Source: Escherichia coli (GTDB lineage: Bacteria; Pseudomonadota; Gammaproteobacteria; Enterobacterales; Enterobacteriaceae). Taken from it: DNA of 64,000 nt. Positions 6,929-37,244 of the stretch are shown piece by piece. The stretch lies in assembly GCF_044324785.1 (NCBI RefSeq), contig NZ_CP172127.1. One strand, 5' to 3'. Every line of letters starts with the position of its first letter. The first letter of the stretch is position 1. The translations under genes and the position numbers were made by a program. Below the pieces are notes generated by a model that worked only from the letters and a program-made list of their open reading frames with translations, ran no database searches and was not told the origin of the DNA.

Positions 6929-7185
6929 GTAAGAACCGACCGCCGTATGTAGCCATTAAGCCAGTATTGGTAACGTAGGTGCCCACCTTTTCAAACTGGT
7001 GGACGCCTGTTATGGAGCAAAAACATTATCCGCAGAACCCCGCAGATCATTTTCAAATGAGTTAAACTTCAAATGGTTAAACTGGTTTTGCAACCAGGAG
7101 CCTCTGTTGCCCGTATTGCCCGGGAACACGATATCAATGATAACCTCCTGTTCAAATGGCTCAGACTCTGGCAGAACGTAAGGTA
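6929..7185 (+). mobile_element. IS66-family left-end remnant (IR plus frameshifted 5' part of tnpA)
   Basis: Terminal sequence GTAAGAACCGACCGCCGTATGTAGCCAT resembles the IS66 IR at 27504; translated fragment ...INDNLLFKWLRLWQN matches IS66 TnpA at 26994-27419. Confidence 0.6.
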
Positions 7186-8036
7186 AAGGGAGATGAAAAA
7201 GGCAATAGCAGAACTGAGTGACAGTGAAACCATTCTGGCGTACAGGGTTGGATGGTGAAACTGATAAAAAACCCCCTCTGAAATTCTGTCAGAGGGGCTA
7301 GTCAATAAGGGAATAATATTCAACATGAAGATGTCTTCTGGGAATGTTTATATAGCAAATGCTTTCACTCCGGTAATTAATTTCCGTGATTAACTGCTTT
7401 CGATCAATAAAGGAATTGCAAAAGTGTGATCTTGTTCACGACATCGTGGATAATAATATGCCTGATGTCTGAATCCGGAAACAGTGCTCTGGCGGGTTTC
7501 ATGTGAAGTTGACGGATAAAAAATCCGCACGACCAGACAGACGTGCGGTTTACGAAATTCGTAACAAGAGGCTTTTCTACGGATCACGTGGTGCGTGCCA
7601 CGTGAAATTTTTGTAGCGCAAAATGTGTGATGTGTAAATACAAGGAAGGAAAAAAGTTAAATCGGTGGAAGTCCATACCTGCCACGTGTACGTCTGCATT
7701 CCTCGTTTTGAACAGAATTCTCACCAGACATCGTGAATTTCTCATTCAATCATCAGAGATATTAACCAGGATTTTTATTGTTTTGTGATATCAGCAGTGC
7801 AGGTATACAGACATTAAAGTAATCAGGTTTATTATAACCACCTTTACAAAGTTGTATGTGTTTATAATTTAAGGATTTTAATGCCAGTCGTTTTCTGCTG
7901 CTTAAATTGAGGTCGCATATTATACACAATAATATTCCTGGCATTATTAAATTAATAAAAGAGGATTCTTATCACTGTATTTTTGCTCCGCACTACCGTT
8001 CTGGCTGGTGAAGTAATAATACAGGAGAATAACAGA

Positions 8037-9233
<1,197 letters not shown>

Positions 9234-9255
9234 CAGGTCAGGATTTAGATATCTG

Positions 9256-9277
9256 TCCCGGGGGGAGTCCCCCGGGA
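9256..9277. terminator. GC-rich hairpin downstream of the adhesin gene (TCCCGGGGGGAGTCCCCCGGGA)
   Basis: Perfect 10-bp inverted repeat 23 nt after the stop; no clear U-tract, so it may instead be a regulatory hairpin. Confidence 0.4.
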
Positions 9278-9294
9278 TATAATGAGGTACAGAG

Positions 9295-9750
9295 ATGCTG
9301 GATATAATCCTGGCGACGAGAGATATTTATTTTGAAAAAGCCCTGCGAGAGATATTTGGAACCGTAAGCAGTCGAATCAGATATATAGAAGATGCCATAT
9401 CAGACAGAAGAAGGGTGCAGTCAGGCAGGTCATTCAGATATTATTTTGTATTCTGTGATGATGAGTATACAGATATTGTTCGTATTCTTTTTACCGGAGA
9501 GGCCTGCTGTATTCTGAATAAGTCGATGCTGAATCTGAGAGCGGCCGGAGGTGTGTTGACGCTGGAAGAGCGCAGAGCGGTACTGAACCGGTATTACAGA
9601 GGTTTAAGTATTGCGGAGATTACAGAAGAGACGGGGCAGAATGACAAGACGGTATACGGTCATCTTCGTCGTGCACTGCAGCGGTCTGGATTCCGGAAGG
9701 GGCGTTTTATAAAGGGGAGAGAAGCGGCGGGGGATTCAGGTGTTGAATAA
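9295..9750 (+). CDS. Small HTH transcriptional regulator (sigma-70 region-4/LuxR-type HTH at C-terminus)
   Basis: 151 aa; C-terminal LTLEERRAVLNRYYRGLSIAEITEETGQNDKTVYGHLRRAL resembles a region-4-type HTH; immediately downstream of the adhesin. Confidence 0.5.
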   Translation: MLDIILATRDIYFEKALREIFGTVSSRIRYIEDAISDRRRVQSGRSFRYYFVFCDDEYTDIVRILFTGEACCILNKSMLNLRAAGGVLTLEERRAVLNRYYRGLSIAEITEETGQNDKTVYGHLRRALQRSGFRKGRFIKGREAAGDSGVE

Positions 9751-10106
9751 TGTATCTTATATTGTGATATCGGTGCTGCTGCTGTTATTTTTTGTTGTAT
9801 TTGTGACGAATGGTTAAGAATAAAACATGAGCTGGTGATTATCAGGACAGGTTGCTTGTATATGAAGATAACAAAGGTGGCATTTATTTTTGCGCTGTCA
9901 GTGTGGAGTGTTGCTGTGATATGTCTTTTATTATTTGTACTGGTTGTTCTGGGATAGCCATAGTGAAATAAAAAGCTGTCTGAATTAAATTATTTTGCAC
10001 ACATGTTTTAATTCTGCACTGAATTCAGAATGGGTAATCAGTGACCGTCCTGACGGTCACTTTAAAGAAAAGGCATTTACACAGAATTACTGACAGGCTC
10101 TGGCTG

Positions 10107-10445
10107 TCATTCGGCCGATGAACAGTTGCTTAAGACAGGATTATCATTCCCTTCCACCAGATTGGCTTTTTTACCTTTTGTGTACAGTTTATATGAGTAT
10201 CTTTTATTGATGGCTTCGTAATTGGCTCCGGAGGCCATTTTCATTAGCTGCATAGGTATCATCTCATCCATCTGATTAATCACTGCATATGAGTTCCCAG
10301 CAGTGGTGTTGATATAGACCACCTCCATTGTCTTATTTCCATTACAGACATAAGCTGTTTTTGAGATTTCTTTTGTGGCAGCGGAGGATACCATACTGTT
10401 GCTAACAAGAATGAGTGCAAGGACGGGAGAAGAGTATTTTTTCAT
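10107..10445 (-). CDS. MliC/PliC-family lysozyme inhibitor (secreted)
   Basis: 112 aa with signal peptide; two conserved Cys and spacing (YVCNGNK...SYAVINQ...ASGANYEA...NPVLSNC) parallel E. coli MliC. Confidence 0.6.
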   Translation of the reverse strand: MKKYSSPVLALILVSNSMVSSAATKEISKTAYVCNGNKTMEVVYINTTAGNSYAVINQMDEMIPMQLMKMASGANYEAINKRYSYKLYTKGKKANLVEGNDNPVLSNCSSAE

Positions 10446-10895
10446 AATAACTCCTTCTGTAGGTTAAAAAAACAGGTGTTTGATCAGAATTATATTAATA
10501 ATTCATTCATCAGAAAAAAAGGTTTTTGTTATAGCAATAATAATGAGCACAATTGCTTGTGAAACTGGTGCCATTTTACGGTTGCTTAGGAGTGCTGAAA
10601 CTGTGCCTGTTAGGGCACAGCTGGTGTGGTGGTCTCAGTACGGAACAATTTGAAAACCAGAACATCACTTAGGCTTGTGTCCACATTACATGGGGTAGGA
10701 TCAGTATTCCTCTATCAGGGGTAACTCGACCAGGCTGGCTGAGCTCTCGTTTTACTGCGAGTATCTATGCCCATTCAGCCAGTGTCAGCGCGAGAGTGTT
10801 AAATTCCGAGCGATTATCCATGCGCAGCATGACCGGATAACCATGATTTAGCCCCTGCCGAGCTAATCGGGAACTGCATAGCACTCTCAATATGG

Positions 10896-11639: not shown

Positions 11640-13195
11640 TACGATAAAATCTCTTCGACTTCGTTTTTAATGATGGTGACATGAGGGCCATAAATCACCT
11701 GAACGCCGTTGCCGCGAATAATCACGCCACGCGCTCCGGCCACTTTCAGCGCAGCTTCATCTACCTTACTGCTCTCTTTAACCGTCACGCGCAGGCGCGT
11801 GGCGCAACAGTCCACCTCTTCCAGATTCTCTTTGCCTCCCAGCCCGGCAATGACTGCCGCTGCGCGTTCACTCTGAGGCTGGCCGGATTCAACCTGGGTT
11901 ACGTTCTCACGCCCCGGCGTCAGCCAGCCAAAGCGGTTAATCAAATAGCGGAAAGTAAAGTAGTAAAGGAAGAACCACGGTATTCCCACTATGGGGACAT
12001 ACATCCAGTTTGTTTTAGCTTCCCCCTGCAACACGCCGAAGAGAAGGAAATCGATAAGCCCGCCCGAAAAGGTTTGCCCAATAGTGATATGTAAAATATG
12101 GGCGACCATAAACGCCAGACCATCGAAGAAGGCGTGAATTACGTATAATACGGGCGCGACAAACAGGAAGGAGAACTCAACAGGCTCAGTGATTCCCGTC
12201 AGGAAAGAGGTCAGGGCTGCCGACAAAAGTAGTCCGGCGACAACCTTTCTATTCTCCGGCTTTGCAGTATGGTACATTGCCAGACATGCGCCAAGCAGGC
12301 CAAACATCATGGTGATAAAGCGCCCGGACATAAAGCGAGCGGTACCCGCGTAGAACTGCTGCGTATTCGGATCGGCAAGTTGGGCAAAGAAAATCCGCTG
12401 CGTACCTTCAACCAACTGGCCGTTGACGATTTCACTGCCGCCCAGCGCCGTCGTCCAGAACGGCAAATAAAAGATATGGTGTAAACCCAGTGGACCGAGC
12501 ATACGCAGGATGAAGCCGTACAACAGCGTCCCCAGATAGCCCGTCGCATCCACCAGGTCGCCCAGTCCAAAAATGAGTTTCTGGAAATGCGGCCACACCA
12601 CCGTCATAACCGCACCCACTACTATCGCGGCAAGGGAGCTGATAATGGGTACAAAACGAGAACCACTAAAAAAACCGAGAAACTGAGGTAGTGAGACTTT
12701 ATTGAAACGGCTATGTAAAGTGCAGGTGACGAGACCAATCACCACCCCACCAAACACACCAGTTTCCAGTGTCTGAATACCAAGCGTCATCCCCTGGCCA
12801 ACTGAAGCGGGGTTCTTGTGCGCCAGCGTTCCGTTGAGCGTTAATAAGGCGTTGATGGTGGCATTCATCACCAGAAACGCCAGCAATGACGCAAGCCCGG
12901 CAGTGCCTTTATCCGATTTCGCCAGCCCCACGGCGACGCCGACTGCAAAGAGTACCGACAGGTTGGCAAACACAATAGAACCTGCGCTGGTCATGATTGT
13001 GAATATTGCCTGCAACCAGTCGGCATCTAAAAACGGATAAGCCGTCAACGTGTTTGGATTTGACAACGCGCCACCAATCCCTAATAACAGCCCTGCTGCG
13101 GGCAATACCGCAATCGGCAGCATGAAGGATTTTCCGAACCGCTGCGCTTTTTCAAACCATCCCCCCGATGAAGCGCCGCTAAACATTTGCATCAT
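11639..13195 (-). CDS. PTS EIICB component (glucose/maltose/N-acetylglucosamine family)
   Basis: 518 aa; N-terminal EIIC membrane domain with GITEPxEF motif, C-terminal EIIB domain with CATRLR active-site Cys. Confidence 0.85.
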
Positions 13196-36661: not shown

Positions 36662-36749
36662 TTCAGGTTAAGCGAGAACCATGCAGCTCCGTTACCCTGG
36701 CTTATGGACGTTATCAATACCGGACAATATGACGAGAAGGATTAACCCT

Positions 36750-37244
36750 ATGAATAACAGCAGCAATACCACAACCCGTAATACGCTTTCACCCGTTGAG
36801 TCAGCCTGTCATGCCTTACTGGATTTTATTGCCCGGGAAGTTTTTGAGAATAAAGCACCGGAAGAGGACGTCAGGGAACGTTGCAAAGTATTTACAGCGC
36901 TGCTTAACGAAGGATTTAAAGCCCTGCTTGATGAGGCAGGGCTGAATCTGTCAAACCTTCGTAAACAGTGTGAGGAACTGGAATCTCAGATAACCAGACT
37001 TGATTCTCAGTCCGATGCTATTTGTCGCAGAGGTGCTCAAATTGAACGCTTCATTGGTCACCATTTACCTTTTTTCGATTTGAACAAAGTTTTTGATACT
37101 GCCAGTCAGTCATGTGAACCAGCGCCTTCTCCGGCTCAGTCGGCTGTGTCCAGTAGTCAGCCCAGTAATCTGTCAGAGCAAGGGACATCTCAGCGGGTGT
37201 CATCTGTTCAACCGTTGCAGGGAGCCAGTGATGTTGATGAATAA
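36750..37244 (+). CDS. Hypothetical ICE protein (coiled-coil)
   Basis: ORF with RBS GAAGGA before ATG 36750; 3' third overlaps a convergent ORF and may be over-extended. Confidence 0.45.
   Translation: MNNSSNTTTRNTLSPVESACHALLDFIAREVFENKAPEEDVRERCKVFTALLNEGFKALLDEAGLNLSNLRKQCEELESQITRLDSQSDAICRRGAQIERFIGHHLPFFDLNKVFDTASQSCEPAPSPAQSAVSSSQPSNLSEQGTSQRVSSVQPLQGASDVDE

Follow-up and report, generated by a model that had tools for sequence, protein, structure and literature searches.

This study concerns a 64,000-nucleotide stretch of Escherichia coli DNA (assembly GCF_044324785.1, contig NZ_CP172127.1; hereafter the window), which represents an accessory island of this species. Two short hydrophobic open reading frames (ORFs), orf25 and orf31, were found downstream of a helix-turn-helix (HTH) regulator gene that itself follows the gene of an Eib-type adhesin. 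The interpretation that we lean toward is that orf31, and probably also orf25, is translated into a small inner-membrane peptide, and that the two lie at the distal end of a prophage adhesin cassette of the Eib type, in which they would play an accessory or modulatory part. Both are probably microprotein genes of this cassette that annotation has missed. An earlier reading made without database searches (the sequence-only reading) had pointed to tiny hydrophobic ORFs downstream of the HTH gene, among them a 31-amino-acid single-helix peptide at 9862 to 9957, and the ORFs are present as it described them. If translated, they would add two to the unannotated inner-membrane microproteins of avian and extraintestinal pathogenic E. 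coli.

Two hydrophobic reading frames behind the regulator gene

The micro-ORFs and the presumed ribosome-binding element of the first one are as follows.

9740 to 9817, plus strand: orf25, 25 amino acids, GTG start, MLNNVSYIVISVLLLLFFVVFVTNG, with a single predicted transmembrane (TM) helix
9862 to 9957, plus strand: orf31, 31 amino acids, ATG start, MKITKVAFIFALSVWSVAVICLLLFVLVVLG, with a basic N terminus and a predicted TM helix running to the C terminus (tail-anchored)
9729 to 9733, plus strand: GGGGG Shine-Dalgarno (SD)-like element of orf25, inside the 3' end of the regulator gene, 6 nucleotides (nt) before the GTG at 9740

The orf31 product consists of MKITK followed by 26 hydrophobic residues up to the terminal glycine. 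Its reading frame also exists in a longer, 40-amino-acid form (9835 to 9957, plus strand), of which orf31 is the part that starts at the internal ATG at 9862; the alternative GTG at 9835 has essentially no SD sequence.

Hydrophobic ORFs were defined as those of 20 to 60 amino acids with a 17-residue stretch of mean Kyte-Doolittle hydropathy of at least 2.6. Only 3 of the 733 ORFs of this length in the window pass, and orf25 and orf31 are two of these three. When the plus strand of 9730 to 10037 was shuffled 5000 times with dinucleotide frequencies preserved, one hydrophobic ORF arose in 5.3% of the shuffles and two nonoverlapping ones in 0.02%. The local DNA is T rich (39% T, 11% C), and this T is distributed by frame: at codon position 2 it amounts to 68% in orf25 and 65% in orf31 in their own frames versus 27 to 42% in the other frames, and the periodicity changes frame from orf25 to orf31. 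Because of the rarity of such hydropathy, its rarity in shuffled DNA, and the frame-specific periodicity, this DNA, as judged from its sequence, has, or lately had, a coding history for hydrophobic helices in exactly the frames of orf25 and orf31.

The GTG of orf25 lies 8 nt before the regulator stop codon (9748 to 9750), so that the two reading frames overlap by 11 nt, an arrangement that suggests translational coupling. The duplex of its SD-like element with the anti-SD sequence was calculated at -8.6 kcal/mol, which is comparable to that of the neighboring lysozyme-inhibitor gene (-8.3 kcal/mol). Pairing of -6 kcal/mol or better was found for only 7% of the 733 small ORFs of the window, and orf25 therefore surpasses about 93% of them. 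The ATG of orf31 is located 111 nt past the regulator stop codon.

The sequence-only reading had called these ORFs unannotatable, and the searches bear this out. Neither orf25 nor orf31 has a family match in Pfam, NCBIfam, or PHROG; with the limit for Pfam and NCBIfam relaxed to an E value of 1, the only match was a chance one of the 40-amino-acid form to Pfam Doppel (E value, 0.038; 14.1 bits against a cutoff of 25). RefSeq annotation of either ORF is absent from all records listed among 183 complete genomes that carry the region. Automatic gene callers predicted orf31 as a gene on more than 200 public contigs, and in RefSeq it is entered solely where contigs end, as a "partial hypothetical protein". 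For the regulator and the peptides, homologues were sought in a word-indexed set of 5.8 billion proteins and by exhaustive HMMER searches of 1.84 billion representatives, and these returned only E. coli and Salmonella copies and frameshift artifacts, at least 82% identical. No match was found in plasmid and phage collections, either at the DNA level with the regulator plus the ORF region or by tblastn with the fused 72-amino-acid peptide. A literature search, in which the original Eib papers were outside the literature searched, found no paper that mentions orf25 or orf31 or discusses ORF-156 or ORF-60, the genes of known Eib prophages that are considered below.

The mobile adhesin cassette and its proposed ORF-60 slot

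The micro-ORFs are part of a mobile cassette composed of the following features.

7179 to 9969, plus strand: mobile cassette with Eib-family trimeric autotransporter, 151-amino-acid regulator, orf25, and orf31
7179 to 7258, plus strand: left edge of the cassette, the last ~80 nt of a prophage DUF4376 (tail-fiber-associated) gene
8037 to 9233, plus strand: Eib-family YadA-like trimeric autotransporter adhesin, first gene of the cassette
9295 to 9750, plus strand: 151-amino-acid regulator with an HTH of the sigma-4/LuxR type, second gene of the cassette
9958 to 9969, plus strand: right edge of the cassette, where the homology between island and prophage ends, about 12 nt beyond the orf31 stop codon

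Region 9200 to 10700 was found, with 95 to 100% identity, in 183 of 5426 complete E. coli genomes, and many of these genomes came from poultry or from extraintestinal infections. The cassette occupies 292 places in these 183 genomes, with up to 7 copies per genome, and both micro-ORFs are covered in all but one copy, which is disrupted by an insertion sequence (IS). No paralogous copy of the region was found elsewhere in the window. Island and prophage copies have 7179 to 9969 in common. A blastn alignment of the window with one prophage locus (L009) begins at 7179, which corresponds to L009 position 12282 inside the DUF4376 coding sequence at 11786 to 12361, and from this left edge within a DUF4376 gene it is evident that the island copy came from a lambdoid prophage. 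The block lies at the tail-fiber end of such a prophage, beside dinI, in strain ECCNB12-2 and several draft genomes. What comes after the block of HTH gene and micro-ORFs varies among YaiO, dinI/IS1414 (prophages), and another IS (a Salmonella contig); the Salmonella contig and one E. coli lineage carry an intact IS256-family element at 10033. The cassette thus moves as a unit and is found in at least four genomic contexts, and its shared span, shared edges, and multiple contexts make the micro-ORFs an integral part of it.

The adhesin has a Pfam YadA_anchor domain (E value, 2.6e-16) and a PHROG match (phrog_9547; E value, 8.9e-42), and its neck and anchor region is 57 to 62% identical by tblastn to EibA, EibC, EibD, EibE, and phage adhesins. 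The start assigned by PGAP is the ATG at 8037, with an SD pairing of -7.4 kcal/mol. Just past the signal peptide, a perfect (GCTCAG)7.7 repeat at 8107 to 8152 codes for (QA)n; this tract is short or missing in the L009 prophage copy, which indicates in-frame length variation between strains. The stalk repeats vary as well, with four tandem repeats of ~33 amino acids in L009 (13744 to 14100) versus one in the window (8586 to 8665). A G+C-rich hairpin at 9253 to 9283 (CCCGGGGGGAGTCCCCCGGG) is located immediately past the adhesin gene and continues into a perfect TATAAT, which lies 12 nt ahead of the regulator ATG; P-EibA has a canonical terminator at the equivalent position.

The 151-amino-acid regulator contains a Sigma70_r4_2 domain (E value, 2.2e-7) and is a remote homologue of ORF-156. 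It aligns over its full length with ORF-156A (BLASTP E value, 2e-4) and over 130 columns with the ORF-156 family (hhalign probability, 83%; E value, 8.6e-6), with an amino acid identity of only 21 to 24%. Its AlphaFold2 (AF2) model has a predicted local distance difference test (pLDDT) score of 75.8, and the most similar PDB folds are RcsB, FixJ, and EvgA, response regulators of the NarL/FixJ type; the N-terminal domain is accordingly modeled as a shortened receiver-like domain. The HTH alone superposes on region 4 of the extracytoplasmic function (ECF) sigma factors SigL and SigD with a root mean square deviation of 0.7 to 0.8 Å over 42 residues. Searches for sigma domains returned a match to region 4 only and none to region 2, and all NCBIfam sigma models scored 15 to 20 bits against cutoffs of 43 to 222. 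The arrangement recalls pairs of ECF sigma factors and membrane anti-sigma factors, in which a gene with a sigma-region-4-like HTH is likewise followed by a coupled single-pass membrane ORF. It differs from them in that the regulator lacks sigma region 2 and has an N-terminal domain predicted to be receiver-like (RcsB/FixJ-like), and in that orf25 and orf31 lack the cytoplasmic domain of a membrane anti-sigma factor.

A small gene in the same place as orf31 is present in known Eib prophages. In P-EibA (GenBank accession no. AF151091), GER2, and PhiR12_3, the gene order is eib, ORF-156, and ORF-60, and the ATG of ORF-60 overlaps the stop codon of ORF-156. The same three-gene order was found in all other retrieved loci with a gene of the ORF-156 type and sufficient DNA downstream of it (L022 to L025 and L027 to L049). 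The exceptions are truncated contigs and two loci (L052 and L053) that lack an ORF-156-like gene and have an adhesin with only 44% identity. ORF-60 (ORF-60A/ORF-60C), which is annotated in P-EibA and in phages GER2 and PhiR12, is listed only as a hypothetical protein (L019, 4918 to 5100; L020, 4880 to 5062; L022, 3501 to 3629; L039, 3433 to 3558; and others). Its length ranges from 41 to 64 amino acids because a hydrophilic, basic N-terminal half is variable or missing, while the core RYTxGAMCFMLFVWLGGV is invariant and the TM helix follows RKRY and runs to a terminal Q. Across the 18 codons of this core, pairs of sequences differ by 7 to 12 synonymous codons and by no amino acid. Such synonymous change without amino acid change shows that ORF-60 is a real, selected, tail-anchored membrane peptide, and it is under clear purifying selection. 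Variants of 41 to 42 amino acids exist, one type of which starts 44 nt from the regulator gene, and they point to a minimal peptide of basic residues plus a TM helix as the conserved unit. Eib-type immunoglobulin-binding and chain-forming adhesin genes thus travel with a regulator and a strongly conserved ORF-60, and work on the expression of Eib and Cla adhesins may be missing part of the locus.

The micro-ORFs of the window share with ORF-60 their synteny, on the same strand and downstream of an ORF-156-type regulator that follows an Eib-type adhesin. In both cases, the small ORF is the last of a block of adhesin, ORF-156-type regulator, and small ORF at the tail-fiber end of a lambdoid prophage. 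In architecture, too, orf31 is similar, with basic residues ahead of one predicted TM helix whose end coincides with the C terminus or falls 1 residue short of it, and the natural ORF-60 variants of 41 to 42 amino acids are nearly as short as it is. An ungapped local alignment of 29 residues with ~31% identity ends within 1 residue of both C termini (shuffle P value, 0.0125; hhalign E value, 0.0025), and a tryptophan lies exactly 16 residues from the C terminus in both peptides. The spacing is different: ORF-60 starts between an overlap and ~45 nt from the regulator stop codon (0 to 44 nt in the cassettes compared), while orf25 overlaps that codon's gene by 11 nt and orf31 begins 111 nt downstream, with the additional hydrophobic ORF, orf25, in the intervening DNA. 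A TAATG stop/start overlap is present at 9748 to 9752, and its frame closes after 5 codons. The invariant ORF-60 core (R-Y-x-x-G-A-M-C-F-M-L-F-V-W-L-G-G) was not found in orf31. On these grounds, orf31 appears to be a positional and architectural counterpart of ORF-60 rather than a proven member of its family; with regulators that are only 21 to 24% identical, lost similarity in a helix of 30 residues would not be surprising.

We infer that orf31 takes the slot of ORF-60 and that it is probably translated from the transcript of the regulator gene by means of its own ATG and SD element. By the positive-inside rule, its product would be an inner-membrane peptide with MKITK on the cytoplasmic side. 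A second single-pass peptide would be provided by orf25, which is probably translated by coupling to the regulator gene through its strong SD element and stop-overlapping start. Their most likely, though speculative, role is that of membrane-embedded accessory or modulatory elements of the cassette, which might act on its pseudoreceiver regulator or on a sensor kinase of the host. Small inner-membrane proteins of E. coli are often cotranscribed with regulators, e.g., safA-ydeO, and in E. coli K-12, sensor kinases are the targets of SafA and MgrB. SafA, MgrB, AcrZ, MgtS, and PmrR resemble orf25 and orf31 in size (25 to 65 amino acids), in their one TM helix, and in being often unannotated. They have no sequence similarity to orf25 or orf31, and unlike modulators of the SafA type, the two peptides of the window have almost no soluble residues able to contact a cytoplasmic or periplasmic domain.

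A broader and doubtful conjecture is that Eib-type cassettes encode a conserved two-component-like mini-circuit in which the pseudoreceiver HTH regulator is tethered or gated at the inner membrane by one or two tail-anchored microproteins and so controls expression of the phage-borne adhesin. In such a circuit, orf25/orf31 and ORF-60 would be sequence-unrelated solutions to the same partner role. If true, prophages would carry, as morons, regulator-microprotein pairs of a new class.

Variation among copies and alternative explanations

All cassette copies in the 183 complete genomes are at least 97.8% identical. Across 15 copies compared, orf25 has no substitutions and orf31 has the polymorphisms V6A and V28I, to which database variants add F9L, I20M, and L30M; all of these changes are conservative. 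Substitutions are too few for a population dN/dS ratio. In strain 729_xx_1_3_yolk (L055), one CTG of the leucine run of orf25 is lost in frame. A lineage-specific inversion of ~3.4 kb in GCA_964257775 (L010, 6190 to 6210 and 9615 to 9650) has a breakpoint inside orf25, at window position 9771/9772, with a GGTG microhomology. The 129-amino-acid "hypothetical protein" P0038 turned out to be a chimera made by this inversion, which also splits an unrelated gene. We rejected a recombination hotspot or invertible element as the source of "partial" database proteins of 59 to 68 amino acids that start at 9751 to 9778; these arise because draft contigs break where multicopy cassettes first differ, at a single-nucleotide polymorphism at position 9832.

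Several observations weigh against the interpretation of orf25 and orf31 as functional membrane peptides of the ORF-60 type. The SD element of orf31 (AGGACAGG) is moderate, with a pairing of -5.6 kcal/mol and a spacing of 10 nt to the ATG. In the comparison with ORF-60, sequence homology is marginal: the hhalign probability is only 12%, and a hidden Markov model (HMM) of the ORF-60 core, built from 26 sequences, gives 2.3 bits for orf31 of the window and 5.0 bits for the common A6 allele, scores that are equaled by 8% and 2% of shuffled peptides, respectively. Only 5 of the 14 invariant ORF-60 positions (A, F, L, V, and W) are retained in orf31, plus a K for R, and orf25 has no counterpart in canonical Eib cassettes. 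The changes in orf31 are all nonsynonymous, which suits neutrality as well as constraint, and the regulator gene likewise shows 5 nonsynonymous and no synonymous changes in the 15 copies. In strain SFE8 (L056, position 1635), an IS3-family element is inserted after codon 3, in codon 4 of orf31, and orf31 is therefore dispensable in that strain. Finally, a modulatory role is speculative, with analogy as its sole basis.

It is possible, if rather unlikely, that orf25 and orf31 are the broken remains of one ancestral small gene whose function is lost, either ORF-60-like or with two TM helices, of ~68 to 72 amino acids and starting at the regulator stop codon. The split would have come about by a 1-nt change in the T6 run at 9789 to 9794 or just past the TAATG overlap, and orf25 may still be translated as a by-product. 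The TM-coding stretches do lie in different frames merely 18 nt apart, and frame 1, that of the regulator and of orf31, is open from the regulator TAA for 69 codons to 9957 (see P0001 and P0030). The TAATG resembles the overlap between ORF-156 and ORF-60, but the stop after 5 codons limits the likeness; the purely nonsynonymous polymorphisms and the IS insertion tolerated by SFE8 also fit a relic. If the T6 run were longer by one T, orf25 and orf31 would be joined in a 72-amino-acid two-helix ORF, as seen in L007. However, L007 is the sole fused allele, and since its source is a single draft assembly in which three homopolymers differ within 400 bp, the fusion is probably a sequencing error, and the G5/T6 state is identical in all 183 complete genomes. 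In addition, orf31 has a separate start codon (ATG), is preceded by an SD-like element, and begins with MKITK, all of which would be expected of an independent peptide with its N terminus inside. Moreover, the N-terminal halves of canonical ORF-60 products are hydrophilic and contain no second TM helix, and the frame-1 reading of the orf25 DNA is implausibly cysteine rich (CDIGAAAVIFCCICDEW).

It is improbable that the ORFs arose by chance in a 3' untranslated region that is T rich and has never been coding. The base composition does favor hydrophobic codons, a single hydrophobic ORF is not rare among the shuffles, and there are no homologues beyond E. coli and Salmonella copies that are at least 90% identical; chance would nevertheless have to produce two nonoverlapping hydrophobic ORFs, the T periodicity specific to the frame of each, the strong SD element and stop-overlapping start of orf25, and the synteny with ORF-60. 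The sequence-only reading had proposed that such often-missed peptides can be small membrane toxins or regulators. The nonrandom sequence, the translation signals, and the ORF-60 slot uphold its view of overlooked single-helix membrane peptides, but no support was found for the toxin part. We consider it quite improbable that orf31 or orf25 is a toxic peptide that an antisense RNA would keep in check, as in a type I toxin-antitoxin-like module, and a toxin role is less likely than an accessory or modulatory one. Type I toxins such as Hok, Ldr, Ibs, TisB, ShoB, and ZorO typically have this size, a single hydrophobic helix, and a place in a prophage or island, and a promoter-like site is present on the minus strand at 9866 to 9838. 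Nevertheless, no known toxin family (Hok, Ldr, Ibs, TisB, ShoB, Zor, Fst, and others) was matched in Pfam or NCBIfam, and no antisense RNA gene was detectable in Rfam and promoter scans: the only Rfam match with an E value of 1 or below falls outside the ORFs and is due to chance, its model being that of a eukaryotic long noncoding RNA (14.5 bits against a gathering score of 50), promoter-like sites number 3 where 4.1 are expected in shuffles, no terminator was found, and the RNA fold is unremarkable (z score, -1.27). In addition, the arrangement of orf25 suggests translational coupling to an ordinary regulator gene, for which we know of no parallel among type I toxins; both ORFs are co-oriented and apparently cotranslated with that gene, as the counterpart ORF-60 is coupled to or co-oriented with ORF-156 in every cassette; and up to 7 copies per genome are tolerated.

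Least probable is a C-terminal membrane anchor, whereby read-through or frameshifting would give a tethered regulator of ~220 amino acids or the 151-amino-acid gene would be a truncated allele. Only a single stop codon (TAA, 9748 to 9750) separates orf31 from the regulator in the same frame, and a 220-amino-acid fusion protein, P0005, is present in the database. We rejected P0005 as an ancestral membrane-anchored regulator: it needs G4 and T7 homopolymer changes, which none of the 183 complete genomes has and which occur in only one draft assembly, where a third homopolymer discrepancy lies close by. Furthermore, the ORF-156 relatives, with 156 to 181 amino acids, have no TM tail and are accompanied by a separate small ORF, and no slippery or read-through signal is evident. 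Small translated membrane peptides at the distal end of the adhesin cassette thus remain the interpretation that we favor.

The lysozyme-inhibitor gene and other neighbors

Two features adjoin the cassette on its right.

10038 to 10101, plus strand: 64-bp remnant of an IS1414/IS256-family right end, with the last transposase codons and the terminal repeat
10107 to 10445, minus strand: PliC-type c-type lysozyme inhibitor (periplasmic, no lipobox), convergent, a neighbor outside the cassette

The sequence-only reading had recognized a convergent MliC/PliC-like lysozyme-inhibitor gene, and this assignment is confirmed by matches above cutoff to Pfam MliC (PF09864; E value, 3.9e-12; 46.4 bits against a cutoff of 22) and to the NCBIfam "c-type lysozyme inhibitor" PRK13791 (NF010363; 155.7 bits against a cutoff of 127). 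The translated N terminus, MKKYSSPVLALILVSNSMVSSA followed by ATKE, contains a cleavable signal peptide ending in SMVSSA before ATKE, with no cysteine and no L-x-x-C lipobox. Without a lipobox cysteine, the protein is PliC-like and periplasmic and not a membrane-bound MliC.

The link between the micro-ORFs and the lysozyme inhibitor that the sequence-only reading had implied proved to be a false lead. The IS remnant lies between them, and elsewhere the block has other neighbors. This remnant has 80 to 88% identity to IS256/IS1414 ends in more than 1000 genomes, was also compared directly with the IS1414 end, and holds a GTGACCGTC..GACGGTCAC hairpin; it marks the junction of the cassette and the remaining island. 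A degraded IS1414 transposase gene at 9751 to 10037 was considered as well, but tblastn returned no match, and the IS-derived part is confined to 10038 to 10101. Strains diverge to the right of ~10088, where some have the lysozyme-inhibitor gene and others a YaiO/glycosyltransferase cluster. The lysozyme-inhibitor gene was found in 147 genomes, versus 183 genomes and 292 places for the cassette. With an IS1414 end remnant between the two, the adjacency is structural and not functional, and the lysozyme-inhibitor gene is unrelated cargo that was joined to the cassette via an IS1414-mediated junction.

Farther to the right, an ORF on the minus strand at 10765 to 10890 (..MLRMDNRSEFNTLALTLAEWA) resembles, by eye, a fragment of an IS3-type integrase core, which suggests that more IS debris lies between nanE and the lysozyme-inhibitor gene. 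Just one other small ORF of the window is very hydrophobic; it is located at 36692 to 36772 on the minus strand (MVLLLLFIGLILLVILSGIDNVHKPG), lies antisense within the 5' end of a 187-amino-acid ORF beside a ParA gene, in a separate island found in 53 genomes, and is probably spurious.

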